This document shows positions 1-37,395 of a stretch of DNA of 37,395 nucleotides, piece after piece. The notes beneath the pieces were generated by a model. It was not told where the DNA came from. It made no database searches and saw only the letters and a list, made by a program, of their open reading frames with translations. Source of the DNA: a virus (taxonomy: Duplodnaviria; Caudoviricetes); the IMG/VR virus record IMGVR_UViG_3300034123_000008, positions 1 to 37,395 of that record. One strand, 5' to 3'. Each line of letters begins with the position of its first letter. The first letter of the stretch is position 1. The translations under genes were made by a program, and so were the position numbers.

Positions 1-33
1 GACTGGTTTTTTATCTGATGTTGCGGGTGCGGT
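1..33. repeat. Terminal direct repeat, left copy (circularisation overlap)
   Basis: 1-33 matches 37363-37395 at 32/33 positions (t12 vs a37374). Confidence 0.95.
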
Positions 34-46
34 CTTTAAGATTCAT

Positions 47-373
47 TTAAGCATCAACTTTCTTGCGTACACGTTTAGGTTTTGGCTCTTTAAAATCTTC
101 AGCGGTTAACTTAGCCTCTTCAACCATAGAAGCGGTAATTGTTGGTGGCTCATTTGTTACCAAATATTCTGAGCAAGCGACAAGTTCTTCTTCTGTTTGT
201 TCTTGTTCAAAGATTGGAACCACAACAGGCTCAGGTTGCACTTCCATGAAAGCAGAAACAACCTTATCTGCTGGAACTTCAACGATGTCGCCTGCAATAT
301 ATCGTTTTCCATTGAAGAAGTAACTGTTTACTTTGTTTGTTATTTGTACTTTAACCATAAAATTATTCTCCAT
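47..373 (-). CDS. Small capsid-associated protein downstream of the MCP
   Basis: 108 aa; N-terminal NGKRYIAGDIVEV beta motif, acidic linker, basic tail; typical post-MCP position. Confidence 0.5.
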   Translation of the reverse strand: MENNFMVKVQITNKVNSYFFNGKRYIAGDIVEVPADKVVSAFMEVQPEPVVVPIFEQEQTEEELVACSEYLVTNEPPTITASMVEEAKLTAEDFKEPKPKRVRKKVDA

Positions 374-384
374 TATTATTATTG

Positions 385-400
385 AACAAAAAAAGAAAAG
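385..400 (-). terminator. Archaeal-type oligo-T terminator after the MCP gene
   Basis: Minus strand reads CTTTTCTTTTTTTGTT about 10 nt after the MCP stop. Confidence 0.45.
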
Positions 401-410
401 ATTTGGGAAA

Positions 411-1298
411 TTAAGTTTGTGTATTAATCTCGCATATAGCCGCTGGTCTTTTTATGATGGGAACTACAGCTTCCCAAACTTTGCCTTGATAATTCATTGA
501 TGGCAACTGAGTGAGGTATGTGCTTACATCTGCACCGACGCCTAATTCGAAGTTTCCAGGTGAAGTGTCAATTAGCAAAGTGTTGGTTGATGTACCAGCC
601 GCTGCCAAAAGATTGTTTGATACAACAATGCTGCCGGGTCCACCTAAGAGGTCTTCGAGAACTTGGAATGCAAAAGTGTCTGTAGTGCCAACGAGAACAC
701 GAAGTTGACTGTAGAACGTGCTGTTGATAATCATTTTGTAGGGTCCATAGAAGCCGTCTGTTTCAAGTTCCGCGATAGCAGCATTTGTATCTGTTATGTA
801 GTCGCTGCTCCAGTCGCCGCCGTTAACTGTGTTTCTGCCAGTTGCATTTGCGAGACCTTCAATTCCAAGTGCTGGCCATCCTGTGTATTCGCCTGTCAAT
901 ATGAGTTTGTCTTCTTCCTCTGCAATCTGTCGAGCTGCGTTAACTGCGTTAGCTGTGTTTAAGTCTTCGCCACCGTTGCGTCGTGCAAGAACATCTCGCC
1001 AATGAAGTTTATAGTCCTTCGAGATAATTGGCACTTTAACTTCGTGACCGCTGAGATCTACGAAATCCATTGATTCTTCTTCACCAGTCATGCTGATGAG
1101 GGCTTGTCCCATGTCGTTTTCAGTGTAGAAAGTTGTTTTTGTTATGCCTGCGTTGCCTAGTGATCGTGTAGGCATTAAGGTTCTGCCAACAAGCATTGGT
1201 CGAATGGTCTTTGTTATTTGGGTTTCAATTAGGTTTACTTCGTAGTCTGTTAATGTTCCTGTTGCGTTTCCGATTCTATTCATAGAGTTCATAGTCAT
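411..1298 (-). CDS. Major capsid protein, HK97 fold, Family 1 encapsulin/Linocin_M18-like
   Basis: 295 aa; LVGRTLMP, PIISKDYKLHWRDV, DLNTANAVNAARQIAEEEDKLILTG, GFYGPYKMI, PGNFELGVGAD, PIIKRPAAICEI; last gene of the head operon. Confidence 0.9.
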   Translation of the reverse strand: MTMNSMNRIGNATGTLTDYEVNLIETQITKTIRPMLVGRTLMPTRSLGNAGITKTTFYTENDMGQALISMTGEEESMDFVDLSGHEVKVPIISKDYKLHWRDVLARRNGGEDLNTANAVNAARQIAEEEDKLILTGEYTGWPALGIEGLANATGRNTVNGGDWSSDYITDTNAAIAELETDGFYGPYKMIINSTFYSQLRVLVGTTDTFAFQVLEDLLGGPGSIVVSNNLLAAAGTSTNTLLIDTSPGNFELGVGADVSTYLTQLPSMNYQGKVWEAVVPIIKRPAAICEINTQT

Positions 1299-1304
1299 AG
1301 TCTC

Positions 1305-1781
1305 CTAGATAGTCATGTCCATTAAGATCCAATCGCATGTTGTAGAGTTCGAGGAACTTGACGCTGCTTTACCAATTACTTGTCCTGCAGTTGCTGCGGG
1401 TGTAACCATTCCGAGTGCGCCTGAAGTTAAGTTAGTGCCAACAACTACGGTGGTGCCTGATATGAGAACTACTTTAACGCGGATGGGACCATGTAACACT
1501 CTGATTTGGTCGCCTGCTGCAAACGTAGTTGTAAGTGAACCTGTTTTAGCTGTGAATGCGTAGTCAGATAGTTTCTTGTCAGATGGAACATCAGCAACAC
1601 CTATAGATAGCACGGAGCCTGTTGGAGCAAATGTTATGGACCAATCGTTTGTGTCGCGTATGCATACTCTGCCAGGAGCTAATCCAGTTGCAACGGTTAA
1701 GGCTTCTTTTTCTTCAACGATTGGTTGTCCCGCTTGCAAAATGGCGTTAGCAGTCATAGCTGGAGTATTTCCTTGTGGCAT
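1305..1781 (-). CDS. Capsid decoration/cement protein (DUF2190-like)
   Basis: 158 aa G/A/T-rich beta protein immediately upstream of the MCP; GQVIGKA motif. Confidence 0.7.
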   Translation of the reverse strand: MPQGNTPAMTANAILQAGQPIVEEKEALTVATGLAPGRVCIRDTNDWSITFAPTGSVLSIGVADVPSDKKLSDYAFTAKTGSLTTTFAAGDQIRVLHGPIRVKVVLISGTTVVVGTNLTSGALGMVTPAATAGQVIGKAASSSSNSTTCDWILMDMTI

Positions 1782-2201
1782 CTAAAAGTCGCCTCCCATC
1801 TTTTGGATTTCTTCTCGGCTTTTGCCGTAGAGGTTGCCAACAGTTAAGTTACTGTCGACTGATGCGTTTCCGGCACGAATACTTTTATAGACGCCTGTTG
1901 ATGCAACATTAAAGTTTTTGCCTTTGCTCAATGTTTCTTCAATTACTTGTAGTTGTGAAGGATTCATCTTTAAGAGGTCTGCTTCTTGATATTCACTGGC
2001 TGATTGAATCTTTAGGATGAGGTCTGCTTTCAAATCGTTTTCAATGATGCTGTTTGCTTGTTCAAGTTGCTGTCTTAAAGCGGTGGCTTCTGAGGTTAAT
2101 GAGGTGTTGATGTTTTTGAGTTGAGCATTTTCTAATGCTAATGCGGCGTTTGCTGTTTTGTAGGTGTCGGACGCTATTTCCGTTTTAACATTTTCGGTCA
2201 T
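1782..2201 (-). CDS. Capsid scaffolding protein with C-terminal LTVGNL motif
   Basis: 139 aa, coiled-coil N-half, lies between the maturation protein and decoration/MCP genes. Confidence 0.7.
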   Translation of the reverse strand: MTENVKTEIASDTYKTANAALALENAQLKNINTSLTSEATALRQQLEQANSIIENDLKADLILKIQSASEYQEADLLKMNPSQLQVIEETLSKGKNFNVASTGVYKSIRAGNASVDSNLTVGNLYGKSREEIQKMGGDF

Positions 2202-2307
2202 AAATTTTTGTCTTTTGTTTTTGAACCAAATTTTTTAAAGACACTTGGGGATTGTCTACAACCGACTTCCTTTTCTCTGCTTGTTGTCCACAGAGGTCAA
2301 CTAATGA

Positions 2308-3240
2308 CTAAAAAGATAAGGGATTACGTCTTTGATGCCTTAATGCTTCGATTCTTTGTTGTTCGCCACGTTGCTGCTTCATCTGTAAAAGCTCTTGGTT
2401 GCGTTGTATGAGTTCTTGTATGCTTATAGAGGGTGTTTTAGGTTTAACTTCGGGTGTCTTGATTGGAAGCGGAGTCGTTGCGGGTGTTGTTGGGGGTGTA
2501 GGTATTACGGTGGCAGGTGGGGTCACTGAAACTGAAACATCCACTTTAGGCGCCTCAACTGCTACAGGAACAACATTAGATTCTTGTTTCTTCTGTGAAG
2601 CCGCTGCAAACTGCTTAACTTCTTCACTTGATACGCCTATTCCGCAGTTAGGATAAGTACATCTGCCTTTCCAAACGCCTGTAGCAACGTGGTCGATAAC
2701 GATGTTACGCATCGCCAAATCATAATGTTGCCCATGCCACTCCCCAGGCGTAGGATCTTCACTATAATAGAAGCCAATAGAAACGTCTGCTTTCTGTTTC
2801 TTCTCTTCCCCCGGCGCAACTATTTCGGATGCGCATGCTTGAATGTTATCTAGCCAATCCATCATGTTTCTTTCTTTAAAGATGTCTTTGCTAAATGATA
2901 AGGTGGCGCGTATTCGGTCGCGATCAAAGAAAGGTTTCTCTACAAAGCCAAAGATTTCGTCTTGTGAAGTTACGACTTTGGCGGCTGGGTGTTCTTTAAT
3001 TGTGAGTTTTGCACCGCCTGCTAGTTTAGAGGCTTTAAGTAATTCAGCTCGTGACCAAAGGCATTGTTTGTTTTCGCCTGCGTTGCCAGCGGGAAAAGTA
3101 TAGATGCCTTCCTTAGCTATAACAGCTGATACTTTTAGGCAACATGAAACATCCTCAGACACTTGCATGGGTTCTGAGAAGACAGCGTATTGAGTAGATA
3201 ATTCAGGTTTAACTATATTTTCTTTATTTGTTTCAGTCAT
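2308..3240 (-). CDS. DUF2213-like prohead maturation protein (putative protease)
   Basis: AVIAKEGIY, TIKEHP, VSIGFY, RNIVIDHVA, GRC...CGIG motifs; P/T linker and helical tail. Confidence 0.8.
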   Translation of the reverse strand: MTETNKENIVKPELSTQYAVFSEPMQVSEDVSCCLKVSAVIAKEGIYTFPAGNAGENKQCLWSRAELLKASKLAGGAKLTIKEHPAAKVVTSQDEIFGFVEKPFFDRDRIRATLSFSKDIFKERNMMDWLDNIQACASEIVAPGEEKKQKADVSIGFYYSEDPTPGEWHGQHYDLAMRNIVIDHVATGVWKGRCTYPNCGIGVSSEEVKQFAAASQKKQESNVVPVAVEAPKVDVSVSVTPPATVIPTPPTTPATTPLPIKTPEVKPKTPSISIQELIQRNQELLQMKQQRGEQQRIEALRHQRRNPLSF

Positions 3241-3242
3241 GG

Positions 3243-4103
3243 TTAAACTCTTCTTGATTTATTTAAGTAACTTATTTTTGAAGCATCACTCATAAATTCG
3301 CCTTTACGTTGAGCTTCCATTTTTTTATCAAACAACTTGTTTTTGAAATCTTGATCGAGTAGTCGCTGTTGTTTTTGCTGTTGCATAAGTAAAAACTCAT
3401 CTGTTGTCACTACATACAAGGGTTCTATAGGTGGAGCTACTGGCTGTTTAGGTTGTGTTTTACGTCGTTTTCTGTGACTGCCAAACTGAGGAATATTGTA
3501 TTGCAAAAAAGGAATTTCAGATGGCGACGCAGCATAAGGTAAAACTTGAACCTCATCTACGATTCCATTCAAAGGATAGTCTGGTCTTGCAATATATAAG
3601 CTTCCAGTCCACGCAGGAATTAACTGTACTGTTGTAGCTGAAGATAATATGTTTGTTCCATCAAAATAAATATTAACAGTATTATCTCCCCCACCATAAT
3701 GATGTGTGATAACGATAAAATGTCGGTTTCCATCAAATATTGTTGTCGGCGGTGACTGAGGTGCCGTATCTCCAGAAAAACCCGCATATATCGATCCATC
3801 TGAGAATAATAAGAAATAGTAAGTTGAATCAGTAGGATTTATAAGACCTACAAATCCTGAACTTGGCGCGGTTCCTTTAATCCAACAGCAAAATGTGAAT
3901 TGTGGACATTGCAAAGAAGATGATGCAGGTATGCTAACGTATCCACCATTTACACTGAGTGCGTTTCCATATTTGCCTTGTACCCACGACGGCAACGGTG
4001 AACCAGATAAGGTGCCATCATTGCCGTTTCCACTTGAATCATGCGCTATACTGCCTGAGTCTTCATCAAACCGTAAATGTAATACTGGCGCGTAAACAGA
4101 CAT
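3243..4103 (-). CDS. LamG/concanavalin A-like lectin domain virion protein
   Basis: LRFDEDSGSIAHDSSGNGNDGTL, GKYGNAL, FTFCCWIK, LNGIVDEVQV. Confidence 0.85.
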   Translation of the reverse strand: MSVYAPVLHLRFDEDSGSIAHDSSGNGNDGTLSGSPLPSWVQGKYGNALSVNGGYVSIPASSSLQCPQFTFCCWIKGTAPSSGFVGLINPTDSTYYFLLFSDGSIYAGFSGDTAPQSPPTTIFDGNRHFIVITHHYGGGDNTVNIYFDGTNILSSATTVQLIPAWTGSLYIARPDYPLNGIVDEVQVLPYAASPSEIPFLQYNIPQFGSHRKRRKTQPKQPVAPPIEPLYVVTTDEFLLMQQQKQQRLLDQDFKNKLFDKKMEAQRKGEFMSDASKISYLNKSRRV

Positions 4104-4105
4104 CT

Positions 4106-4135
4106 TTAAGCCTTCACTTTATTTTCTTCTGTCAT
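4106..4135 (-). pseudogene. Remnant duplicate of the maturation-protein gene start (MTEENKVKA*)
   Basis: 4118-4143 matches 3223-3248 at 22/26 nt, including the preceding GTT TAA. Confidence 0.6.
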
Positions 4136-4137
4136 GT

Positions 4138-4326
4138 TTAAACCCCTGTTAATTTTTTCAAATTTATTAATTGGATTTCCTCATTTCTACGTTGCCGCCT
4201 CATCTGAAGTAAACGGCGTTTCTTTTTAGACAACATATAGCTTGTTCTGCCCCTCGCGTAACTACCTTGACAGTGAGCACCAAAGCTTTGTTCCCGTGCC
4301 AAGTTGAAGCCATTAAAGAAACTCAT
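4138..4326 (-). CDS. Small basic hypothetical protein
   Basis: 62 aa, ATGA-coupled to the upstream gene; R/K-rich C-terminal helix. Confidence 0.6.
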   Translation of the reverse strand: MSFFNGFNLAREQSFGAHCQGSYARGRTSYMLSKKKRRLLQMRRQRRNEEIQLINLKKLTGV

Positions 4327-4544
4327 ATTTCTGTTTCATACCGTGTTAACTCAAGCTTCGTTTTAGAAGCTGTATCCATCCATGCTTTAGAAGCACGTTT
4401 ATTACGCAGCAACCTAGTTAATTCGTCGCCAGTTAAAACTTCAATTAAGTCTTGGTCTATAGTGATTTTGTCGTTTGTATCCCAAGTTATAGTATATTCT
4501 ACTTCATTGATTGTTATTTTAGCCACATATGTTGGATTAACCAT
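4323..4544 (-). CDS. Hypothetical protein
   Basis: 73 aa, AGGAG RBS upstream, within operon. Confidence 0.7.
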   Translation of the reverse strand: MVNPTYVAKITINEVEYTITWDTNDKITIDQDLIEVLTGDELTRLLRNKRASKAWMDTASKTKLELTRYETEI

Positions 4545-4562
4545 TTTTTGTTTTCTCCTAAA

Positions 4563-5162
4563 TTAATAGTATGTTACTGCAAGAACCATTTGAACATCAT
4601 TAATTTTGATAACTCCTGTAGTAGCATAAGCTGAAATCCAATTGAACTCGTAAGTTGCGTCAAAACTATCGACGCACCCAACTATATCACCGGCGCCAAT
4701 TAACCGCGATGCACCCGCTGTTTGAGATGCAGCTAACTTGAAAGTATCAGCATAAATATCGATAGCTGCACAATCATCTTCAACGCCTTGTTTATTTACA
4801 TTTATTGAAGACGTCATTAAGATTTTGTTTTCTGCAGCCAACATGTTTTGCAGTTCCCGAAAAATCAACTGTGCTTCAGCCTTCACAATATGGATGTTAA
4901 ATCGTTTAGGCAGAGTTACAGAGGGTAAAGATACACTGTAAAATTCATGGGGCACATGCACAATTAACTCCACGACAGGAGCAACCGCGCTATAGAAGTA
5001 TTCAGTAACTGAATTATTGCGTGTATGATCATCTACTATGGCAATGGCGTCTTCAATTTCAAAATCCAATTCGCCTAAACGTCCGCCGCCAACTTTAAAT
5101 TCTTTCACAGCAAAATAAATTGTGTATAGAACAGGCGAAACCCCCCCCATTCTATACACCAT
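4563..5162 (-). CDS. Putative virion beta-sandwich protein (possible C-terminal part of a frameshifted gene)
   Basis: 199 aa; overlaps the upstream ORF across a G8 run in the -1 frame. Confidence 0.6.
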   Translation of the reverse strand: MVYRMGGVSPVLYTIYFAVKEFKVGGGRLGELDFEIEDAIAIVDDHTRNNSVTEYFYSAVAPVVELIVHVPHEFYSVSLPSVTLPKRFNIHIVKAEAQLIFRELQNMLAAENKILMTSSINVNKQGVEDDCAAIDIYADTFKLAASQTAGASRLIGAGDIVGCVDSFDATYEFNWISAYATTGVIKINDVQMVLAVTYY

Positions 5163-5359
5163 GTACCAACTGTTGTCGGTGTGAAATTAAGAAGTTTGTA
5201 CCATCCAAACCCAACTTCAGAGACAACTCCAGATAGGCGGGTGTCGTCTGCCGCAATGATTGTGCATGTAGGCGTTAACCCAATTGATGCAGTTCCTGTT
5301 GCTGTAGTTGTTATGTAGCATTTATCAACGAAGTTCTCGCCGATCTTTAAGTCACTCAT
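5105..5359 (-). CDS. Ig-like virion protein (possible N-terminal part of a frameshifted gene)
   Basis: 84 aa; GLTPTC, EVGFGWYK, FTPTTVGTW motifs. Confidence 0.6.
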   Translation of the reverse strand: MSDLKIGENFVDKCYITTTATGTASIGLTPTCTIIAADDTRLSGVVSEVGFGWYKLLNFTPTTVGTWCIEWGGFRLFYTQFILL

Positions 5360-5361
5360 GT

Positions 5362-5490
5362 TTACTTTGCCTCTATAGGTATTTTGAGAACAGGTTGAAC
5401 ATATCCAAAAGTGATTAAGATAGCTGCTTCACTAGTTAAAGCACTGTGATAGGCATATACTTCTGGTTGAATTTCAATATAATTACTCAA
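5362..5490 (-). CDS. Small hypothetical protein (42 aa, TTG start)
   Basis: Open frame fills the gap between flanking genes exactly: MSNYIEIQPEVYAY... Confidence 0.5.
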   Translation of the reverse strand: MSNYIEIQPEVYAYHSALTSEAAILITFGYVQPVLKIPIEAK

Positions 5491-5493
5491 TGT

Positions 5494-5904
5494 TTATTCT
5501 TCCTTTGTTGTTGGTCCTTTTGTCCAATCTGTTCCTATGTTACTCCATAAATCTAAGTTTGATTCAGGTCCCCACTTCTCATCTTCACGTATAAGTAAGC
5601 AGCCGCATGTTCCTTCTTTTCCCCATAAGGTTTTGTGGACGTTTGCATATATGTCGTCGCCGACCCATTCATGATCTGGAAATACTGTTCTAAGTTGGCT
5701 GCCTGTGAAGGTTGAACCGTCAAACATTTCGCAGTATATGCATGATGGTCCTTCTGGTTGATGGTGGGTGTCTAAGTAGAATGTCCATAATGCGTTTACG
5801 CTATACGGGCTTGTATCGCGTAGGTGTTCTGGGATGCGTTGTTTAGCTGCTAACTGCGTTAGGTTTACGAGTGTTAGTAATTTCTGTGATAATATAGCTT
5901 GCAT
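5494..5904 (-). CDS. Short minor head protein, Mu gpF/SPP1 gp7 C-terminal-domain-like
   Basis: CIYCEMFDG...VH...CGCLL motif; directly after portal; start uncertain. Confidence 0.6.
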   Translation of the reverse strand: MQAILSQKLLTLVNLTQLAAKQRIPEHLRDTSPYSVNALWTFYLDTHHQPEGPSCIYCEMFDGSTFTGSQLRTVFPDHEWVGDDIYANVHKTLWGKEGTCGCLLIREDEKWGPESNLDLWSNIGTDWTKGPTTKEE

Positions 5905-7354
5905 CTCCTTTCGCTATTTGTTCCTGTATCTTTTTATCTTCTAAAGGATTGTTGGGCTTAGCGTCAAATGGCGCTTTCCCCTCTTGACCCAATGGCTGCT
6001 TCTTAAGTGGATCAGGATTCAACGGTAGCCCCGTAAGTGGATTCACACCTATTTCAGGTTGTGGACCGTTAGATTTGCCTTTTAAATCGTCCCCGCCCTC
6101 TTCCTTACTTAAATCTGTGCAGTCAGGATCAATCATCTTTCTAATTTCGTTTCGTTTAAAGAACGACCAAAGATAATCGACTTCTTGCGCACGAACTAAA
6201 GCCATCTGCTGCTTAGTCTGTTCATCTAGTTCGAATCCGCCTTTCCAGTTAAAAGTGAAGTCTGTTTCTTGCCCTATCAAGGCTTCTATGATTAAGCGTA
6301 TGCCGTCTTCGTAGCTGGATTGTTCGCCGCTTATCATACTCCAAAGGTTAGAGGTGTCTGTTTGTGAACCTGTTAATGCTCCTGCTTGCACACCCCTAAG
6401 AATAGCTAAGGGTATTCCTGTACCACACGAAATATGCTCCATCGGTGGCAAATAATAATTCATTGGATCAAGAGCATGGCCTTGTAAGCCTTTGAAATCT
6501 AACAGTTGATCTTCATTATGAGCAAAATAAGTACGTGCTGACAGATCCTTAAATGAACCTGACGCAATGAAGTCGTCTATGTCTTTTTTCTCTGCACCTG
6601 TAAATGTAATGTCGGGAAACCCTGAGCCGTATCTATACATTGTTTGGCCCATACCCCACCGAATATTTCTAAGGGTTGTTAAGTCGTCCCAGATAGCATC
6701 TAAAACAGATTTACCCATCCAATCATGATCTATAAGGCGCGTAGCGAAGTGAACCACTCGGCTATAATGTACTTTCATTGAAGCTAATTGCCCTGGGCGA
6801 CTAATCACGTAGTATAAGGGTAAACCGTAGCGTTCACTGTTTGGATCTTCATCTAATTGAGGCACGGATATTTGTGTGGGTCCATACGCTTTAATCTCTA
6901 CAAGTTCCCCGCTTGTTTTAGGTTCTGCAAGCGATTCTGCTGAATCATTAAAGCCAAGTACAATTATTGCCCAACCATACCCACGTTCAAAGATTGCCAT
7001 ACGGGTTAATTCTTGTTTAGCATTAATCTTATCTAGTTGCTTCTGTATGCGTTTATCGAATGCAACGTTGTCTTTTGAGGCGGGTTGTGCGGCTGTTTCT
7101 GTTGGTGCCGCTGAAGGAACACGATAGTTGCTGCCTTCAAGGGTGAACCAGTTGTCAAAGATTGCTTTAGCTATTGAGAATACAGTTCGAAACGCCACGG
7201 GTTCGCGTAGTATGGCAAAGGTGCGTAATGTGTCGTTGATGTCTTCACCATATTCGCCACCGCCTCCTGTTCCACCGCGGGGTATAGTGATGCCTGTACC
7301 TGCTTGAGTAGTAGAAGCTAAACCTACATGCTTAACTGAAACACGCTGAGTCAT
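5843..7354 (-). CDS. Portal protein (DUF1073-like)
   Basis: 503 aa; ERGYGWAII, RYGLPLYY, KVHYSRVVHF, GKSVL, GIPLAILRG; downstream of TerL. Confidence 0.9.
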   Translation of the reverse strand: MTQRVSVKHVGLASTTQAGTGITIPRGGTGGGGEYGEDINDTLRTFAILREPVAFRTVFSIAKAIFDNWFTLEGSNYRVPSAAPTETAAQPASKDNVAFDKRIQKQLDKINAKQELTRMAIFERGYGWAIIVLGFNDSAESLAEPKTSGELVEIKAYGPTQISVPQLDEDPNSERYGLPLYYVISRPGQLASMKVHYSRVVHFATRLIDHDWMGKSVLDAIWDDLTTLRNIRWGMGQTMYRYGSGFPDITFTGAEKKDIDDFIASGSFKDLSARTYFAHNEDQLLDFKGLQGHALDPMNYYLPPMEHISCGTGIPLAILRGVQAGALTGSQTDTSNLWSMISGEQSSYEDGIRLIIEALIGQETDFTFNWKGGFELDEQTKQQMALVRAQEVDYLWSFFKRNEIRKMIDPDCTDLSKEEGGDDLKGKSNGPQPEIGVNPLTGLPLNPDPLKKQPLGQEGKAPFDAKPNNPLEDKKIQEQIAKGDASYIITEITNTRKPNAVSS

Positions 7355-7376
7355 ATGTTAATATCTCCAAAATACA

Positions 7377-7718
7377 CTATCTGATTTTGCCATATAGATC
7401 GCCAGCGGTGAAACGTTCAGACACTTCTTCAACCTTCTCAGTTTTTTTGGGATATTCCATTTCTTCCCTTGCAAGATACCAATTCATAACAGCGTCCATA
7501 AAAGTCATAACTTCTACTTTTTTACCAAGCAAACCTCTTAAAACAGTGCTTTCTTCCTTTGGTTCAGGATTTGCATCTGCCACAATATACTTAGCAATTA
7601 ATGTGGCTTGTTTGTAATTGTTAGTAAACATATTCAACCACGCTGTCAAGGAATCTTCAGTAAAAATATCAAATACTGGTCCCCTTTTTTTTGGAGGGGA
7701 TAATAATTTTTGTGTCAT
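7377..7718 (-). CDS. Hypothetical protein ending in FTAGDLYGKIR (candidate capsid cargo)
   Basis: 113 aa; C-terminus resembles the scaffold's LTVGNLYGK. Confidence 0.65.
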   Translation of the reverse strand: MTQKLLSPPKKRGPVFDIFTEDSLTAWLNMFTNNYKQATLIAKYIVADANPEPKEESTVLRGLLGKKVEVMTFMDAVMNWYLAREEMEYPKKTEKVEEVSERFTAGDLYGKIR

Positions 7719-7933
7719 TTGTTAACGTCTCCAAACCATTTCTTAAACCATACTTGTCTATCAGTTGCTAATTGTGCCCAATCAGTTGTAATATCAGGAT
7801 CAGGGTTTATTTGTGGAAACTCTGTTTTTGCGTCAACAATGCAAAGGAGAATGTCTTTTGCAAGTTGCAGATTACGGTTACTTCTCTTAACCATGAACCC
7901 AATAATTTTAGTGGATAATTCACCGTGTGTCAT
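7715..7933 (-). CDS. Hypothetical protein
   Basis: 72 aa, ATGA-coupled on both sides. Confidence 0.65.
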   Translation of the reverse strand: MTHGELSTKIIGFMVKRSNRNLQLAKDILLCIVDAKTEFPQINPDPDITTDWAQLATDRQVWFKKWFGDVNK

Positions 7934-8190
7934 GCCATCGCTTTTCCTTTGCTATTTACATTTTTAAATTCGAAGCCCATATTATTTGAGAAGCCTACAA
8001 AACTGCAGTTAGAACAGTTTACTTCTGTTTCAAATGCCTTCGTATTTTCTATGGCGCGAACTAGGTTAAGTGTGCGTTGTTGACACGCTGGACACGACGT
8101 TTGAGACACTAAGGCTTTCATGCTGTTAGTTAACATAATGGATTTAGTGAATGTTTGCTGTGGCTTTTGAGGATGCAAAAGATTTAACAT
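7930..8190 (-). CDS. Zn-ribbon protein
   Basis: CPAC...CSNC; abuts the TerL stop. Confidence 0.65.
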   Translation of the reverse strand: MLNLLHPQKPQQTFTKSIMLTNSMKALVSQTSCPACQQRTLNLVRAIENTKAFETEVNCSNCSFVGFSNNMGFEFKNVNSKGKAMA

Positions 8191-9495
8191 TTAACCGAAA
8201 CTCCAACCGTGAATATCATGCTTATGAACCTGACTAAACGCACCCGATAAAGCATCAACTTGATCATCATGCTCACCAATTGGGAAACCTTCTAATTCAT
8301 CTAGGAATGCATTGTTCCATGTGCCACGTACAAGTTTAATGTTTCCTGCTTCAGCCGCTGACGCAACTGGTGCGGCTCGTTCTGCTTTGGGACCAGTGGT
8401 TTTTAATCCATAGAAGGTTTTGCCTTTCAACACTTCTCGGTTATACCTATCAATTGTATCAACGCCTGATGAACCGGGTTCTTGCTCCATCACAGTTTTA
8501 GCGTCTTTATCAAGTTGTAAATCTGAGGTTTGTTTAATGAGTGCTTCTACTTCTGCTGGGTTGCCACGCATACGCCGAATATCTATGATGTAGTAGACGC
8601 CGTTAACTTCACCTAATAACAGGCCAACTGTATAGTCAGGATCTTTGTTTGTGCTCTTTGGTTTAGTTGCTGCTTTATCCCAGAACCTTATGAGTTTAAC
8701 GTCATGTGGGTAAGCATCTACTACTTGGAACCATTCACGTTGAAAGATTGAGCCACCATGTTTAGCAGTCCAATCGCCCTCAAGATATTGTCGACGTGTT
8801 ATAGGGTCAAGATTGTTGAGTGATTTAATGTAGCTTGTTTGATCGATGTATTCGTTGTCTGTTAGTTTAGCTGATATGAATATGCGGTTGTGTTCGTATC
8901 CTTCAACCATGAATCTTTGTTTAACCCAATCATGCCCAATGCCCCCAGGGTTAGATGCGCATCTCATTCGTAGGGGTACATGGCTGTTCTTAAGCCGCCG
9001 CAACCTCGAAAACAAATACCTGTACTTATCTTCTTCAAACTGTGTAACTTCATCAAATCCGATGCTTTGAAACTCTGCGGATTGGTAACGGTATTTGTCA
9101 ACGTCTGTGTCAAGGTATCCAAACGCAAGTTTAGCACCTGAGGGAAATTCCCAACAGTTTTCTTGTCCTTTCCACGTTGCATCCGTCGGCATCAACCACT
9201 GTTTAGACCTATCCATTAAAGCGCCGGGCAACGCTAAATCACGGAAGCTGCGTCTAAAGATTATTGCTGAGTAACCGGGTACATCGACATATTGCAATGC
9301 ACACATTAAGAGCCAATCTGATTTACCGCCGCCTGCTGCGCCGCCATATAAGACTTCTTCGTTATCTAGTAAAAGAGCCAGTGCTTGTTTAGGGGTTGGT
9401 TTGTGGGGTATGTACTGGTTGAGGAGTACAGTGTTCAAGAAGAGCTGCTTCTTCAAAGAGGCTTTCGTACTGTTTAAGCAAGTCGCTTGTAACAT
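8191..9495 (-). CDS. terL: Terminase large subunit
   Basis: YGGAAGGGKS Walker A, IGFDE Walker B, ASNPGG coupling motif, RFWDKA and HDDQVDA nuclease motifs. Confidence 0.97.
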   Translation of the reverse strand: MLQATCLNSTKASLKKQLFLNTVLLNQYIPHKPTPKQALALLLDNEEVLYGGAAGGGKSDWLLMCALQYVDVPGYSAIIFRRSFRDLALPGALMDRSKQWLMPTDATWKGQENCWEFPSGAKLAFGYLDTDVDKYRYQSAEFQSIGFDEVTQFEEDKYRYLFSRLRRLKNSHVPLRMRCASNPGGIGHDWVKQRFMVEGYEHNRIFISAKLTDNEYIDQTSYIKSLNNLDPITRRQYLEGDWTAKHGGSIFQREWFQVVDAYPHDVKLIRFWDKAATKPKSTNKDPDYTVGLLLGEVNGVYYIIDIRRMRGNPAEVEALIKQTSDLQLDKDAKTVMEQEPGSSGVDTIDRYNREVLKGKTFYGLKTTGPKAERAAPVASAAEAGNIKLVRGTWNNAFLDELEGFPIGEHDDQVDALSGAFSQVHKHDIHGWSFG

Positions 9496-9829
9496 TTACT
9501 TTAACTTCTGTTTCATTTTTACTTATTGACAAAGTTTCTGTCTTTAATGTTTCGCCTGCCAACACTATAGCTAATTGATCTTTATCTGATAGTTTATTGT
9601 TGGCTGCTTTACTGATTAAGTTTAATGTGCATAGGTTTCTTAAGACGTGTATTGTTTCGGGGTTTTGTTCTGCGTCTTCTTGCGCTATCTCATTTAGGTA
9701 GCGTCTTATTGATCTGTCTGAACCGCCGAATACTGTTCTTAAGTGGTCTCTGTCGAATGATCGTGTTCTTAATGATTCTCTGATTAACTGTTTTTTTGCC
9801 TGTTTGGTCAACTTGGACATTTGCGACAT
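9389..9829 (-). CDS. terS: Terminase small subunit (putative)
   Basis: 146 aa, N-terminal HTH (SDRSIRRYLNEI), overlaps the terL start. Confidence 0.7.
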   Translation of the reverse strand: MSQMSKLTKQAKKQLIRESLRTRSFDRDHLRTVFGGSDRSIRRYLNEIAQEDAEQNPETIHVLRNLCTLNLISKAANNKLSDKDQLAIVLAGETLKTETLSISKNETEVKVNVTSDLLKQYESLFEEAALLEHCTPQPVHTPQTNP

Positions 9830-9841
9830 ATTACATGTTTC

Positions 9842-10228
9842 CTATGATTCAGAATGTTTTAAGATTAATAAAAGACCTTCAGATGTTTTCTGCCATTTAC
9901 CTTCTATTGTATCATGAGTAGCGAAACCGAACTGTTGTAGATAAGCATAGGGGATTGATATTATTCTTGTACTATGATGATTCATAGAACAAAGTTTATG
10001 CCATTCTACCTGGTTGTTGGTGTGTGCCTTTAAAACAGATTCTGAAGATGTACGACGAGGTATTTGATTTTTCTCTAAAATTCTGCATGCGGTAGATGTA
10101 GCTATTCCGTATTTAGTTTTTAAGTTAGGTAACGATAAACCGTTTTTGTAGTCAATGATAATAGACTCATGATCATATTTTCTACGTTTTAAACCAGCTA
10201 TTTTTTGCTTAGTTACTTGTTGTGTCAT
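9842..10228 (-). CDS. DNA-binding protein, HTH plus AbrB-like C-terminal domain
   Basis: GLSLPNLKTKYGIATSTACRIL...IPRR; RIISIPYAYLQQFGF. Confidence 0.65.
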   Translation of the reverse strand: MTQQVTKQKIAGLKRRKYDHESIIIDYKNGLSLPNLKTKYGIATSTACRILEKNQIPRRTSSESVLKAHTNNQVEWHKLCSMNHHSTRIISIPYAYLQQFGFATHDTIEGKWQKTSEGLLLILKHSES

Positions 10229-10230
10229 GT

Positions 10231-10281
10231 GTTGTACAACTTACCGTAATATTTTTGTACTTCAATGTACATTATTGTACA
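10231..10281. promoter_or_regulatory. TGTAC operator-like repeats upstream of the HTH gene
   Basis: Perfect palindromes GTTGTACAAC (10231) and AATGTACATT (10264); TGTAC at 10256, 10266, 10276. Confidence 0.5.
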
Positions 10282-10470
10282 TGTCTATAGACCACGTGAT
10301 GAAAGCACCTTTGCACCCACCCGCATAGACCCTCTCTAAAGGCGAGCGGTTTATGGGTGCTTGCTTTCCATTAATGATCCTGTTTCAAATGCTTCTCATA
10401 CTGAGTTATTATGAATTTGGTTGGTCCTTCCCACCAACATGTACAGAACTCACAAACTTTAATTTGATGT

Positions 10471-10614
10471 TCAGCCTTCACAATTCATATCCTCATGTAC
10501 TGTAGAGGGGTGTGTTCGTTCTTCATGTATTCCACGTAACCAACCGATTGCATACGGAACACAATATATGCTTATCACAACCACTGCTAAGATTGATAGT
10601 TGTGTTAAATCCAT
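10471..10614 (-). CDS. Small single-pass membrane protein (47 aa)
   Basis: AAGGAG RBS before MDLTQLSILAVVVISIYCVPYAIGW; the longer ORF call is probably over-extended. Confidence 0.6.
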   Translation of the reverse strand: MDLTQLSILAVVVISIYCVPYAIGWLRGIHEERTHPSTVHEDMNCEG

Positions 10615-10640
10615 TTGGGTTTTCTCCTTTGGGTTTACAG

Positions 10641-11107
10641 TGCCTTCGTATGTGAGCTTGCTGATAGAATATGAGGGGAAGTAAACGAAAAGTTGGCTAT
10701 CGAGCGCACTACGTGAAGGCATATCTGCCCCAATTGAGACAAATTAATGTTGCGCAGGTTAAGTCCGCGGCTTAGATGTTAGTATCCCATTTGCCTGCGC
10801 TCATAGGGCTTAATGCCATCATATCGCCGTAAGTTTTCCAACCGATACAACCCACGATGGAATAATGATAAGATACACGCCGTCACCAGCGTACGTTTTC
10901 ACGTCTGTACTGCAGGGTTCCTTGTCACGGTTACTATGTTCGGTTGTTACTTTATTTGGGAACTACAGACTTCGGATTCACCATGGATACTTGCTAAAGG
11001 CATCCTGGTTACCGTTGCGCACCCTTTTAGCAGAGCGGTAGTTCCCAGCAACTTTGACAGGGGTGATGCTTCCTTACTTTTCCCATCCCACTATTATGCA
11101 GGCATCA
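10641..11107. ncRNA. Candidate large structured non-coding RNA
   Basis: Consecutive and nested helices: 10641-47/10715-21, 10752-58/10794-800, 10920-27/11055-62, 10957-66/11038-47, 10991-11000/11024-33, 11064-69/11102-07. Confidence 0.5.
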
Positions 11108-11140
11108 TCATTTCAGGAAGACTCTTAGTCACTAAAAAAA

Positions 11141-11557
11141 CTATGGATGTAAAGTATTCGCGTGATATATCCAGTTGCCTACAGGTGGAACAAAACTAAT
11201 AGATGCTGTGCCTGAGGCGTCTGTTGGTGCTGATCCCATTAAGTTGCCGTTTTGATCATAAAAATCCACGTTGACTCCTGCTAATGCATCGCTAAGTGTT
11301 GTCGTTAAAGTCCATGTTGCTCCCCATGTTACTGTTGAAGGCGAAATAGTTACTTGTGAAAGAGTAGCTTGTGGTACAGGTGTAGGTGTTGGAGTGGCTG
11401 GTGGAGGTGTAGGATTTACGGTTCCAGCTGTGCTATCAGGGCTTCTTATGCCATAAACTGCAACAGCGTAACCAATCAAAGAAAAAGCAGCGATAGCTAC
11501 GCATACTGCGATTAAAGCGTATTTTTGGGTTGAAGATAATTTACTTAAGACATTCAT
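11141..11557 (-). CDS. Membrane-anchored Ig-like domain protein
   Basis: GAGGTGA RBS at 11566-72; N-terminal TM, PT linker, Big-like domain (GVNVDFYD, TDASGTAS). Confidence 0.75.
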   Translation of the reverse strand: MNVLSKLSSTQKYALIAVCVAIAAFSLIGYAVAVYGIRSPDSTAGTVNPTPPPATPTPTPVPQATLSQVTISPSTVTWGATWTLTTTLSDALAGVNVDFYDQNGNLMGSAPTDASGTASISFVPPVGNWIYHANTLHP

Positions 11558-11573
11558 ATTGTTTTTCACCTCT

Positions 11574-12155
11574 CTAAACAACTACTTTCTTTTCTATTGT
11601 AATTATTTGTTTTAATCCATCTGAGCTGGTGAATACTTTGTTTGATGGAATAACCCCGGATATTTGTGATTCAATAGTTTGTGATTGTTTAAACAACTCG
11701 GTTTTTTGTTGTTCAACAGTTTGCTGCATTGACGCATATTTATTTTGTATCTCAGAATACTGTGTGGATAACTGTTCTTTTTCTTTGCTTACTGTGGTGA
11801 ATGCTTCATCTTTCAATTTTGTTGCTGAAGTTAATTCTTCTGTTTGCCCGGTTAATGTTCCTATGGTTTCATCTTTGCCTTTAATCTCTTTTGTTGCCCA
11901 ACTTGATAATGCAGCTTTCTGCTTCTTAATTTGATTATAAGCATAACCAAACGCTGCAGTGCCTGCTAACCCTACACCTGTGGTTCCTACAAGGCCATAA
12001 ACTGTAGAAAACGTAGTTGTGATTTGCGTATGTAAATACGCGTATGCCATGTTGCCATAATACGCGAAGGGATCAATATTTAGATACCAAAGTATAGGAA
12101 ATGCAATCAAAGCTACAACAACAACTACAATTATGAGTTTAATTGCACCATTCAT
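11574..12155 (-). CDS. Membrane protein with C-terminal coiled coil
   Basis: 193 aa, two hydrophobic segments followed by a long heptad region. Confidence 0.75.
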   Translation of the reverse strand: MNGAIKLIIVVVVVALIAFPILWYLNIDPFAYYGNMAYAYLHTQITTTFSTVYGLVGTTGVGLAGTAAFGYAYNQIKKQKAALSSWATKEIKGKDETIGTLTGQTEELTSATKLKDEAFTTVSKEKEQLSTQYSEIQNKYASMQQTVEQQKTELFKQSQTIESQISGVIPSNKVFTSSDGLKQIITIEKKVVV

Positions 12156-12156
12156 T

Positions 12157-12600
12157 TTATCCTGTCCCTTCTAAATTCATGAGGAAACGAGCTTCAATTG
12201 TAAATGCAGAAGCTGCTTTAATTGTATAAGGATTATGGCTGTCAAATTGTGAATCGCCAAACATCCAAGCGTTAAATCTGTATCCAACTGCAGGTATTAC
12301 TTTAAAGGTTAAGGTGTCGCCGTTGGGGCAATTTAATGATTTAGGCAAGTCTGCAGCAGTTAATGTTAATGTTGAGCCTCGGTTCTGGTTGGTTACGGTT
12401 ATTGATTGAACTCCTATCGCTGAATTTACGGTGTAAGTTATTATTGGGGGTGGACCTGGCGTTTCTGCAACGGTTGGTGCAGGTGTTGGAGTGGCATTCA
12501 ATTTTTTAGCAGCATTAGATGCATTACTTGCTGCGGCAGCTATACCGCCGACTAACAATACACCAACGATTATAAGTATAAAATAGAAACGGGGTTTCAT
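12157..12600 (-). CDS. Membrane-anchored InlB B-repeat-like protein
   Basis: MKPRFYFILIIVGV signal/TM, PT linker, PAVGYRFNAW...NPYTI...IEARF; ATGA-coupled. Confidence 0.75.
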   Translation of the reverse strand: MKPRFYFILIIVGVLLVGGIAAAASNASNAAKKLNATPTPAPTVAETPGPPPIITYTVNSAIGVQSITVTNQNRGSTLTLTAADLPKSLNCPNGDTLTFKVIPAVGYRFNAWMFGDSQFDSHNPYTIKAASAFTIEARFLMNLEGTG

Positions 12601-13001
12601 TGCTGTAGCTCCCATTCAGGTGATGGAGGAGAATCAAGCGGTTTCTTAAGTTCAGGCATAGGCGGCATCTTAAAATCATATTTGCCTTCACGTGCATTCT
12701 GCCTAAACGCTTCAAGATCCAATACGTACCGAGCGCGATCTGCTTCCTTTGACAAGTCAAATTGATGTATTACTGTGTGGTTGACTATTCCGACGCGGCC
12801 GTATTCGTCGGGTTCAGATTTTGTTATAACTGTTTTAGCTGTGTAGCAGTTTGCTGCGCCTACACGTTTGAAGGTGCCTATTTGCTGTGCATCCCACATT
12901 GGCGCAAGTTTTTCAGGGCTTAAGATTTCAAGCAGTAGAGGCGATTCATAGGTGACTTCGACGCCGCCTATCATGCCTTTAACAAATTGAGCTGAACGCA
13001 T
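12597..13001 (-). CDS. GAP1-N2-like GTPase-associated protein
   Basis: DEYGRVGIVNHTVI resembles the D-x-x-GR-x-G-x(3)-H signature; adjacent to the GTPase. Confidence 0.55.
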   Translation of the reverse strand: MRSAQFVKGMIGGVEVTYESPLLLEILSPEKLAPMWDAQQIGTFKRVGAANCYTAKTVITKSEPDEYGRVGIVNHTVIHQFDLSKEADRARYVLDLEAFRQNAREGKYDFKMPPMPELKKPLDSPPSPEWELQQ

Positions 13002-13007
13002 ATTGCA

Positions 13008-14099
13008 TCAACTCGCTAAAGCCTGCAGCCAATCTAATACTTTGAAGCTCCAATATTCACTATAATGGATTGCGTTTACGTTGTCTTGCCAATTAGCTGT
13101 ACGATCAAAGATGTCGCGGCGTTTAATTTTAAAGTCGTTTGGATTAGCGGGGTCCCAACATTGGGGTTTACCGTTGACTTTTTCTATTTCAATGAAACTG
13201 GGGAAATATGAGATGTTGTTTAAGCCTAAGCTTGTGATTGCTGCGTATGTGGATGGGTAGAAGGCTTCCATAAACTTCTCCATTGATGCAACACTTATCT
13301 TTGTATCGAGAGGGTTGAATGGTTCACCTGTAATTCTTTGTATTTGTTCAGCTACCGGGGCTAATCCATCCCAAGCAGTCACCACGACGCCCACATGATT
13401 TAAGGGTGGAAAACTGCTATTTTGCCGTTTAAACTTGCAGATGCCTTGAACCATACGTTTAAGGTTAGCGTCACTATAGATGCTCATGCCTGATACATCA
13501 GTGGGTTCTTTCTCTAATTCTATTTCTAAACCTTGTGCTCTAGTTGCTTTAATGATTAATAATATGGCGTTTGATCTGCATACCATTGTGATGGCGCGAT
13601 CCGCTGGAATACGTGCTGCATCTTCTAAGGTGCGTGCTTGATTAACTTTCTCTATCAAGTTAATGAGGTCTTCGCCTGCAAGATCCGCCATGACAGAGTG
13701 AACAGTTTTTTTACTTAAACAGAAGCATTTGCCGCCGGGTAAATATTTAACGTGTGCATATTGAAAAGTGGCGCATGGTTCAACACTGCTTATTCCAAGT
13801 TTACCGGTTTTAGGTGGGAAATGGCCTGCTCGCATAGCTGACTTACTGTTTTCGATGTCTCCTGTGCCTTCATCAATGTTATATGTGAAAGGGTATTCTG
13901 TGCCTCGTGATTTGGTTACTTTACGGTCTGCCGCGATAAGTGTTGCTGCAAGAAAAGCTGATTTGCCGCTACCTTTGGTGCCTATCATTGTTACGCCGCA
14001 TTCAGCCATGCCCGCATCCATTATTTGGCCAACGTTTTGGTTTCTTTGGTTGTTGCTTTCATAGCCAATTAGGTCTTTAGCTGTATCCCAAAAGGGCAT
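13008..14099 (-). CDS. TRAFAC-class GTPase (DO-GTPase2-like)
   Basis: G1 GTKGSGKS, G2 FPPKT, G3 DLAGE, G4 variant TAWD. Confidence 0.85.
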   Translation of the reverse strand: MPFWDTAKDLIGYESNNQRNQNVGQIMDAGMAECGVTMIGTKGSGKSAFLAATLIAADRKVTKSRGTEYPFTYNIDEGTGDIENSKSAMRAGHFPPKTGKLGISSVEPCATFQYAHVKYLPGGKCFCLSKKTVHSVMADLAGEDLINLIEKVNQARTLEDAARIPADRAITMVCRSNAILLIIKATRAQGLEIELEKEPTDVSGMSIYSDANLKRMVQGICKFKRQNSSFPPLNHVGVVVTAWDGLAPVAEQIQRITGEPFNPLDTKISVASMEKFMEAFYPSTYAAITSLGLNNISYFPSFIEIEKVNGKPQCWDPANPNDFKIKRRDIFDRTANWQDNVNAIHYSEYWSFKVLDWLQALAS

Positions 14100-14434
14100 T
14101 AGGTAACCACCGTTTGATCAGCTGATCCGGTTTGGCTTAAGGTTTGTCCTTGTGGCATATAGGTGTTTTGTTGTGTGTTTACTTTGGTTCCTGTGATATA
14201 GGTTTTTATTACCCAGAAGATAAGCACGCCAAGACCTATGTATCCTAATGCTTGCAAGACGCCGATGATGGGTTCTACCGCGCCAAACATTGTGTAGCCA
14301 ACGAAGGCAGCGCCTATGAAGGATAAGTCAATGACTCCGAGAACATGCAGTACAGGTAACGCAATGAGTAAGCCGATTAGCAGAAAGATTATGAGCCAAC
14401 CAGATTTTGATAGTCGACTTTTAAAAGTAGGCAT
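14099..14434 (-). CDS. Multi-pass membrane protein
   Basis: 111 aa, about 3 TM segments, GAGGTGA RBS at 14445-51, stop/start overlap with the GTPase. Confidence 0.8.
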   Translation of the reverse strand: MPTFKSRLSKSGWLIIFLLIGLLIALPVLHVLGVIDLSFIGAAFVGYTMFGAVEPIIGVLQALGYIGLGVLIFWVIKTYITGTKVNTQQNTYMPQGQTLSQTGSADQTVVT

Positions 14435-14734
14435 AGTTTTTAATTCACCTCGGAGGCTTTGGTTTTATGTTGCTTCTGTTTTTTACCTAATTTAGAGTTG
14501 CTTTTACGCGCCTCAAAAAATAGCGCCTCATGGTGACTAAAATCTATGCTGTCCATCACTTTTTACCTTCTGTTACTTGGATCTTTTCTTTGACCAACAA
14601 TCAAAACAGAACTCTTTTGTGCCTTCTCTTCCCACAGAGTTCACCCATTCAAGATATGCAATTATCGATAAGGGGTTATCGTCAAGTATGAGTAAATCCT
14701 GGGTATGCATACATTTATACTGAGTCAGTTTTCA

Positions 14735-14839
14735 TCACTTGGATATGGGGCATTCATGTTTTTCTTCTGCCTTATACGTTACGTCGCAATCTGGGCAGTA
14801 CCTATGTGAAAGAGTAAAACAACTAACACATGACGACAT
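14735..14839 (-). CDS. Cys-rich micro-protein (34 aa)
   Basis: MSSCVSC...YCPDC...HEC. Confidence 0.45.
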   Translation of the reverse strand: MSSCVSCFTLSHRYCPDCDVTYKAEEKHECPISK

Positions 14840-14848
14840 TTGAAAAAC

Positions 14849-15121
14849 CTACTTTAAACCAAATTCAAAAACCCATGAATCAGGAAGCACTAACCCGTCA
14901 GGATAATTAACGGGGTCAATAGAAGCAATATGTTTTAAATCTAACACTTTCTCTGTTAATGGGTAATCTTCTGTTTGCTGCGCGATTTTACTGTAAGTTT
15001 TAAGGAAGTCTATTGTGGCTTGATTTTTTTCTTCAAGAACTTGTTTGCGTTCATATTCAACTTTACGCATTAAGTCTCTTATTTTTCTTGATTTAGCTTT
15101 ACCCATCTTTATCGCTTCCAC
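14849..15121 (-). CDS. Hypothetical protein
   Basis: 90 aa ORF; probable start at MGKAKSRK. Confidence 0.6.
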   Translation of the reverse strand: MEAIKMGKAKSRKIRDLMRKVEYERKQVLEEKNQATIDFLKTYSKIAQQTEDYPLTEKVLDLKHIASIDPVNYPDGLVLPDSWVFEFGLK

Positions 15122-15346
15122 AAGTTAATTTGATGCTTCTAGACAGTTGGCTAAATATTTTTTGATGCCCTTGTCTAAAAGTCTTCTCCGCGTGAGCAGA
15201 GGTTGAATCTCTTGTGATTGCTGTTACACAGTCACATTATAAGATAATTAATATTTAGTTAGCATATCCCTTTTTAAGCATTGTGTTTATAAAACACTAT
15301 GATATGTTGAATTATTAAAAAAACAGCCTAAATGTAGTTTATGACG

Positions 15347-15577: not shown

Positions 15578-15592
15578 TTTTTACTCTCCTAA

Positions 15593-16433: not shown

Positions 16434-16472
16434 AGTTTATTTTTTCACACTCCCTTAAGAAAGATTAGGACG

Positions 16473-17411: not shown

Positions 17412-17412
17412 G

Positions 17413-25621: not shown

Positions 25622-25627
25622 AAAGAT

Positions 25628-36775: not shown

Positions 36776-37395
36776 TTAAGTCACTTGGAAACAGAAATCA
36801 GGAAACCTAATCTGAGGACACACATGTTTATGCAAAGCAAACTCTTGCACGGCATCCACAACCCCTTCTTGACCATAGAGATAGTCGTGTCCGCCAATAA
36901 AGCCGCCAACCTTAACTAAATCATAGTAAAGTTCTAGGTCTTCTTGCACGAACTCTTTAGAGTGATTACCGTCAATGTAAACAAAATCAAACACCTTATT
37001 CTTTAAGACTGTTTGAGCTGCTTCTGAGCTGGATAAATTCACGAATCTTACACGTTCATCATGTTTTAACGTGTTAAATCTGCTTTTCCCCTCTTTGGTG
37101 TAAGCGTCAATCACACGGTTGCCCTGCTTGTATGCGTTGCCGATGTAGGGGTCAACACAGAACAGTCGATTAATTGATAATTCTTTGAGTAAGTTCTCAG
37201 CGTTCACGCCGAAACCAAACCCTATTTCGCACCCAACCAACTCTCGAGAGCCGCTATGTTCTTTAACGATCTTTGTAAAAGGACGCGGAACCCCATGACT
37301 ATTCGAAACTGCATCATTCACCCACTTATACACATGAGGACTAAGCGCATGCATAACAGCGAGACTGGTTTTTAATCTGATGTTGCGGGTGCGGT
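36776..37395 (-). CDS. Class I SAM-dependent methyltransferase (Methyltransf_24-like); probably starts at position 46 across the junction
   Basis: EIGFGFG, VDPY, DFVYIDGNH, GGHDY; frame stays open through the right repeat copy. Confidence 0.85.
   Translation of the reverse strand, partial: RTRNIRLKTSLAVMHALSPHVYKWVNDAVSNSHGVPRPFTKIVKEHSGSRELVGCEIGFGFGVNAENLLKELSINRLFCVDPYIGNAYKQGNRVIDAYTKEGKSRFNTLKHDERVRFVNLSSSEAAQTVLKNKVFDFVYIDGNHSKEFVQEDLELYYDLVKVGGFIGGHDYLYGQEGVVDAVQEFALHKHVCPQIRFPDFCFQVT
37363..37395. repeat. Terminal direct repeat, right copy
   Basis: Matches 1-33 with one mismatch. Confidence 0.95.

Follow-up and report, generated by a model that had tools for sequence, protein, structure and literature searches.

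The window analysed here is a whole stretch of 37,395 nt, the uncultured Caudoviricetes virus record IMGVR_UViG_3300034123_000008, and the major capsid protein that it encodes is the nearest kind of viral head to the Family 1 encapsulins that we found, although the window is not an encapsulin system. A head operon, a likeness to encapsulins in sequence and fold, the topology of a tree and a conserved peptide can all be seen directly in the data. The explanation that we favour, and consider probably right, is that the gene encodes the major capsid protein of a DNA-packaging virus and lies just outside Family 1, that the likely scaffold of this virus is predicted to dock via an LTVGxL peptide, and that the stem lineage to which the virus belongs was the source both of the encapsulins and of their cargo peptide. 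The features on which the argument draws are collected in Table 1.

Table 1. Head genes and related features of the window, with the basis for each label
Feature	Positions	Strand	Basis
Small conserved gene after the capsid gene	47..373	-	homologues after the capsid gene in L001-L003, L012, L037, L045 and others
Major capsid protein, HK97 fold, Family 1 encapsulin-like, 295 aa	411..1298	-	profiles, PDB sequences, model
Capsid cement (decoration) protein, 158 aa	1305..1781	-	Atlas structure match PF22758 Phage_cement, TM 0.82; PHROG 673 weak
Likely scaffold, 139 aa	1782..2201	-	position, coiled-coil model; no Pfam family
LTVGNL codons in the scaffold	1827..1844	-	sequence; matrix rank 1
Head maturation protease, DUF2213	2308..3240	-	PF09979 39.9 bits; PHROG 2229 and 530
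Portal protein	5843..7354	-	PF06381 105.7 bits; PHROG 146
113-aa orphan ending FTAGDLYGKIR, candidate second tagged (internal) protein	7377..7718	-	relaxed pattern, peptide score
Terminase large subunit	8191..9495	-	PF17289, PF03237; PHROG 979 385.6 bits
Possible terminase small subunit	9389..9829	-	position only; no Pfam or PHROG match
Terminal repeat, 33 bases, one mismatch to window 1-33	37363..37395	.	sequence

The capsid gene lies in a viral head operon

The original prediction had set the capsid gene in an operon of terminase, portal, protease, scaffold and cement genes, and this was borne out on the minus strand, the scaffold being labelled from its position and a coiled-coil model. The Caudoviricetes head module (HK97-fold capsid, portal, terminase large subunit and maturation protease) is all present in the window, and the gene is also, as had been claimed, the sole capsid candidate, giving the one match in the record with no other capsid family among the 50 window ORFs in Pfam. 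No cargo family was found among the same 50 ORFs, beside the shell gene or fused to it, its neighbours being the cement and scaffold genes, and eight tagged neighbours of cellular shells that were tested in the same way belonged to the EncFtn, ferritin or DyP families.

A portal homologue was present at 37 of 45 loci of the viral clade to which the window belongs, compared to 0 of 17 bacterial encapsulin loci; most of the eight clade loci without one were cut by a contig end, and in L018 the portal lies 14 kb upstream. Portal or protease homologues in common with the window were found at 29 of 38 loci of viruses with DUF6260-type capsids, which speaks for a capsid gene inherited along with the rest of the head module. 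Capsid genes in Bathyarchaeia chromosomes at five loci (L014, L015, L017, L018 and L111) were considered as domesticated, portal-less cassettes, an idea that was rejected as portal genes were present in 5 of the 5 genomes checked.

A profile made from the likely tail tube genes of three relatives found 14 proteins among the loci but none in the window (best E 0.09), and a weak PHROG match at 23984-25621 is the sole tail signal there. The tail region (23984-28358, minus strand) has no recognisable tail tube, and the tape-measure position (25628-26023) holds only 131 aa (104 aa in L001), a label given by position and look, as are those of the tube-like and long tape-measure-like genes seen in other clade members. 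The subgroup of the window may have a very short tail.

Source, host and extent of the genome

The host of the virus is likely to be found among the Bathyarchaeia archaea. Seven of the best eight genome matches were Bathyarchaeota records, some of them on chromosome contigs of 0.5-2.1 Mb, and DNA of the window is contained in a peat metagenome run; a host spacer search with positions 1-19000 against 391 genomes gave no spacer-like match. The 33-base end repeat, together with a gene order across the join of the window ends that is the same as at locus L001, suggests that the record probably represents an entire genome, circularly permuted, a reading which contrasts with the IMG/VR class of the record (linear, 51% complete). 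The contigs of one run, possibly the source of the record, span 35400-37365 and end at the terminal repeat, which is no proof of circularity. Relatives with terminal repeats measure 45.7 and 46.9 kb, and complete proviruses 39.3 and 44.4 kb.

In proviruses within Bathyarchaeia chromosomes (L127 (G037:C3), L018 and L014/L015) the structural genes are separated by host-like or defence-like genes, and one genome (G002) has two head modules on a single contig with the portal frames broken in both. Within the window, a minus-strand cluster at 11141-14434, common to L001 and L008, encodes proteins anchored in the membrane that have Ig-like and InlB B-repeat domains, as well as a protein of 363 aa (13008-14099) that has a P-loop-like motif. 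Elsewhere lie a LAGLIDADG endonuclease (15593-16120, minus), a cytosine methyltransferase (20797-21657, plus, with an ORF at 20927-21421 inside it in another frame), a radical-SAM-like protein (21962-22696, plus) and a Methyltransf_24 gene (36776-37354, minus) inserted after the capsid module.

The capsid protein resembles Family 1 encapsulins in sequence and fold

All six Linocin_M18/encapsulin motifs quoted in the original prediction were found letter for letter in the 411-1298 minus-strand ORF, the plus frame over the same positions having many stops. The HMM comparison that had been proposed as a check gave 102.1 bits for PF04454 (cut-off 24.3), compared to 35.6 for PF19774 (DUF6260) and 27.6 for PF09950, and the capsid lies outside the branch of these latter families. 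The NCBIfam model NF041155 (encap_f1) scored 129.7 bits, passing its cut-off of 100, and the best PHROG scored 50.3 bits; a likeness of this size is well outside what chance would give. Among the 36 PDB sequences matched at E<=1, ranks 1-35 were encapsulins or engineered encapsulins, headed by Myxococcus EncA (1.7e-29), and the lone phage capsid had an E value of 0.11.

An AlphaFold model built from 37 relatives (pLDDT 82, pTM 0.77) retrieved encapsulins alone down to rank 46 in Foldseek, with EncA at the top (1e-26) and the T=3/T=4 types ahead of the rest; a phage capsid appeared only at rank 48 (1.6e-15), and the best match in the viral library had 1.9e-18. Family 1 shells have, as characterised in PMC8346489 and PMC11664910, a compact HK97 fold with an N-terminal helix and no extended N-arm, and this is the arrangement of the model, which has its N-terminal helix at about residues 18-35, no long N-arm and 35 residues ahead of the LxGR motif. 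The N-terminus before LxGR is mostly 30-31 residues long in encapsulins; 13 of the 14 clade rows have 32-50 residues there, and 15 of 16 DUF6260-type capsids have 42-121. Identity of the capsid protein to EncA-type shells is about 30%, which is close to the 30% of some DUF6260-type capsids.

In three related viruses the capsid gene is present a second time, as a version of 248-255 aa (L002:7111-7857, L011:6035-6781 and L220:3592-4359, all minus) that lacks most of the E-loop along with part of the next helix and has a new basic N-terminal extension. The positions of these copies vary, two of the three run against the operon direction, and they could encode a minor capsid protein or a blocker of assembly directed at competing viruses.

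The viral capsids lie just outside the cellular encapsulins

A set of 176 full-length shells from the fetched loci was thinned to 77 and then to 46 rows (24 cellular, 12 viral and 10 DUF6260-type capsids), the smaller tree being without the long branches L112, L161, L197 and L217, two truncated paralogues and 25 thinned rows. In this tree the 24 cellular Family 1 shells formed a single clade with 100/100 support (these labelled rows are bacterial and crenarchaeal, without euryarchaeal (Pyrococcus, Methanosarcina), Thermotoga, actinobacterial or T=4 IMEF shells), and viruses and encapsulins together were split from the ten DUF6260-type capsids, again with 100/100. The 12 viral rows fell just outside the cellular clade without forming one clade themselves, and a quick 77-row tree gave the same splits. 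With 131 unlabelled representatives added, the cellular clade had a support of 98 and took in 30 of them, 75 others falling among or beside the viral lineages; the loci found for two of these lineages are viral, and the search gave no locus for P0186, which of the unlabelled proteins stands closest to the cellular clade. The placing of the exact sister lineage, and with it the order of the viral lineages at the stem, had supports of 4 and 26, and the clade of the window is one of at least three viral stem lineages.

This topology supports the suggestion made from the sequence that the lineage is a sister group or ancestor of encapsulins, with the root assumed at the DUF6260-type capsids, the unrooted tree giving no direction of itself; nor did the protein cluster with ordinary phage major capsid proteins far from encapsulins. 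The other suggestion, that the virus had recaptured a cellular encapsulin, would have a viral ancestor swap its capsid gene for a Family 1 shell, with the scaffold taking over the cargo peptide. T=3/T=4 encapsulins are indeed the best solved matches, one clade member shares 40% identity with Myxococcus-type shells, and PMC13669383 argues for transitions both ways, but the cellular shells are monophyletic to the exclusion of the viruses, and the viral stem lineages surround them. In AU tests the viruses were grouped by constraint either with the four shells nearest to EncA or with the full set of 11 EncA-like shells, and both nestings were rejected (p-AU 0.00028 and 0.00034 respectively; the groups were chosen after the tree had been seen). 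A PF04454 match was found in just 10 of 301 Bathyarchaeia genomes, most of those inspected being proviral. We therefore regard such a recapture as improbable.

A root placed among the encapsulins would reverse the history, so that the viruses and the DUF6260-type phages came from a cellular shell and the short N-terminus and the peptide were retained ancestral traits. This is allowed by the unrooted topology and would agree with the proposal in PMC13669383 that HK97 shells began as biochemical compartments. It is set against section 12 of PMC8346489, which puts encapsulins within a wider viral diversity, and against the viral diversity around the clade, which is greater than the cellular among the best 131 representatives (30 in the cellular clade), and we think it an unlikely course of events. 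Within Family 1, shells with TVGSL-type cargo lie at the base (with weak support) and LGIGSL-type shells are nested, which fits TVGxL as the older form. By the pattern used, 23 of 53 cellular loci had a tagged neighbour.

The likely scaffold carries a peptide like an encapsulin cargo tag

The modelled scaffold has a 66-residue coiled-coil helix (residues 3-68), two shorter helices and a disordered tail or linker, and this tail holds LTVGNLYGK, with LTVGNL near the C-terminus at residues 120-125. In Myxococcus, EncB, EncC and EncD bind EncA via LTVGSLR, mainly through its L, V and L (PMC11126975). Searches of the scaffold against solved structures by Foldseek and by profile gave no meaningful match, and so no kinship to EncD or to any solved scaffold is claimed.

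A peptide matrix was built solely from 23 cellular cargo peptides, selected by a pattern that allowed N and D, both already seen in viruses. Applied to the 64 ORF ends of the window it placed the scaffold first with 16.4 bits, within the range of the cellular peptides themselves (15.6-19.9), the next end scoring 8.0. A score of at least 10 was reached by 25 of 48 clade picks; there was a single such score among 1163 other ORF ends, and none in 43 control viruses (46 were examined, with up to three upstream genes each, and 3 were too short). After four frameshifted or wrong picks were dropped, the strict motif was present in 32 of 44 scaffolds and missing in 12, and at <=70% identity it was present in 21 of 30 distinct scaffolds. 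In two further stem lineages, too, the scaffold region finishes with an LTVG-like core, at 6 of 6 loci with the gene, plus L057, L131/L132 and L245. These two lineages (L237-L243, L057, L131 and L245) have short encapsulin-like capsids of 277-297 aa, and the end of their scaffold, or of a fusion of protease and scaffold, is an LTVG[MEQD]-like motif.

On the side of the shell, the EncA residues contacted by the peptide, R34 and D243 (10.1101/2023.07.26.550694), which were taken as R35 and D244 in the numbering of PMC11126975, align to R39 and D257 of the capsid, neither of which varies across the 37 clade proteins. At the R39 column 13 of the 14 clade rows have R, as do all 32 non-crenarchaeal encapsulins, and in the 16 outgroup capsids R is outside the top three residues; D at the D257 column is found also in 8 of those 16. 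EncA D39 and D214, which pair with the arginine of the cargo peptide (PMC11126975), correspond to P43 and G222 in the window capsid, and the viral peptide has Y in place of that arginine. Complex predictions that paired the capsid (alignment A1) and residues 104-139 of the scaffold returned 0.00, 0.65 and 0.00 in their runs and were used neither way. Judged by sequence only, the shell has a partner protein with a C-terminal targeting peptide, and the scaffold is predicted to dock inside the shell by its C-terminal LTVGxL, in the pocket that receives encapsulin cargo.

The likeness of the peptides might instead be convergent, or the motif might be otherwise used (as a protease site or for portal binding), in which case the shells would still be related as described here and cargo loading would have arisen anew in cells. 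The motif has only six residues, the virus has neither the arginine that comes next in the EncA peptide nor the acidic residues that pair with it, and 9 of the 30 distinct scaffolds are without the strict form. However, no part of the scaffold alignment is better conserved than LTVGxL, the motif stands after a disordered linker near the C-terminus, as in cargo peptides, and it is absent from all 43 control viruses but recurs in three stem lineages, and for these reasons convergence or another use seems to us a poor candidate.

A second protein of the window may carry a similar tag. The 113-aa orphan overlaps the stop of the preceding gene and is translationally coupled within the head operon, and its end was the best of 1318 non-scaffold ORF ends when scored against the scaffold peptides of the subgroup (31.4 vs 25.1). 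A relaxed pattern, which was widened after this end had been seen, gave three matches among 1202 non-scaffold ORF ends, two of them frameshifted scaffold ends of one provirus and the third the orphan. No relatives of it were found among proteins of near lengths, and there is about an even chance that the product is packed into the head.

Proposed assembly and origin of cargo loading

In the mechanism that we propose, many copies of the coiled-coil scaffold would bind the N-helix/P-domain pocket of the capsid subunits via LTVGxL, and the scaffold, oligomerising by its coiled coil, would together with the portal set a procapsid larger than T=4. The DUF2213 protease would free the scaffold, the terminase would pack about 37 kb and the cement protein would clamp the expanded shell. 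Going by the sizes of the HK97, P22 and lambda heads, the procapsid is likely to be T=7. A T=4 encapsulin is put at about 10.75 kb and a mature T=4 capsid at 15.2 kb in PMC13669383, so that a genome of ~37 kb points to a shell larger than T=4, in agreement with the original prediction.

The history would be that a stem-group provirus lost its portal, protease, terminase and cement genes, and that the docking peptide moved onto ferritin-like enzymes to give the Family 1 encapsulins. As an encapsulin-like shell is here found with a scaffold ending in a near copy of the cargo tag, it is likely that encapsulin cargo loading grew out of viral head assembly. A bolder version, which we offer tentatively and which is on balance somewhat doubtful, would make these archaeal viruses living members of the lineage behind all Family 1 encapsulins and the targeting peptide the capsid-binding end of their scaffold; the orphan protein would be loaded by its tag, peptide-addressed loading would have preceded domestication, and a single pocket would be used in shells ranging from T=1 to T=7, the size being determined by the tagged coiled-coil scaffold.

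The origin of encapsulins from viruses and the source of their cargo loading have so far been argued from deep trees and loose structural analogy (PMC8346489, PMC13669383), and this lineage would supply a named intermediate and a residue-level link between scaffold and cargo. If the scaffold does drive an encapsulin-like shell to T=7, it would also offer a route to much larger peptide-loaded nanocompartments.

Comparison with known systems

That viral capsids resemble encapsulins is already in print (PMC8346489, PMC13669383). PMC8346489 makes the case that encapsulins are domesticated prophage capsids, and cautions that phage capsids turn up as false positives in encapsulin searches. NF041155 and PF04454 likewise call viral capsids such as this one encapsulins, so that cargo-less archaeal 'Family 1 encapsulins' need a check of their context. 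PMC13669383 (Aguilar et al. 2026) reports viral capsids with Linocin_M18 domains and groups Family I with viral capsids; its groups include mini genomes, VerdaV2 (an encapsulin-only case) and a Structural Group 5 with Haloarcula tailed virus 3 and gammaproteobacterial phages, and it lists a Bathyarchaeota 'encapsulin', A0A524NG28. The main group described there has genomes of about 9 kb without portal and terminase, unlike the window. It treats cargo and scaffold as interchangeable internal partners in a switch model without a shared peptide, its comparison of the two giving a likeness of helical hairpins only, at 4-18% identity, and the terms 'targeting peptide' and 'TVGSL' are absent from its main text. 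Our literature searches, which covered mostly the open literature, found neither a scaffold with a Family 1 targeting peptide nor a description of this clade as encapsulin-like.

The head-tail viruses of Bathyarchaeia named 'Fuxiviridae' and 'Kunpengviridae' (PMC10541130) and the BATPV proviruses (PMC11705971) likely share the host class of the window and have an HK97 capsid, portal and terminase, and the word encapsulin is absent from the main texts of both papers. The sole cultured matches to the capsid are the DUF6260 (PF19774)-type phage capsids, at 28-34% identity, with Citrobacter phage vB_CfrS_K1M, Brevundimonas phage StAshley and Halorubrum phage Hardycor1 as examples. K1M has the protease-cement-capsid order of the window, and portal and protease homologues are common to related uncultured viruses, but capsids of this type have a longer N-arm, score higher with PF19774 than with PF04454, form a branch of their own (100/100) and are without the LTVG motif.

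The best match in sequence and fold is the T=3 Family 1 shell EncA of Myxococcus xanthus with its cargo EncB, EncC and EncD (PDB 4PT2, 7S2T and 8VJO; PMC11126975), at about 29% identity and a TM of 0.77-0.79. The two systems differ in that the partner in the window is a coiled-coil scaffold and that of EncA a ferritin-like enzyme, in that D39 and D214 are not kept in the window capsid, and in that the window has portal, protease, terminase and cement genes, lies outside the Family 1 clade and has about 37 kb to hold. They are alike in the short N-terminus with its N-helix, in a partner that ends in LTVGxL past a flexible linker, and in the retention of R35 and D244.
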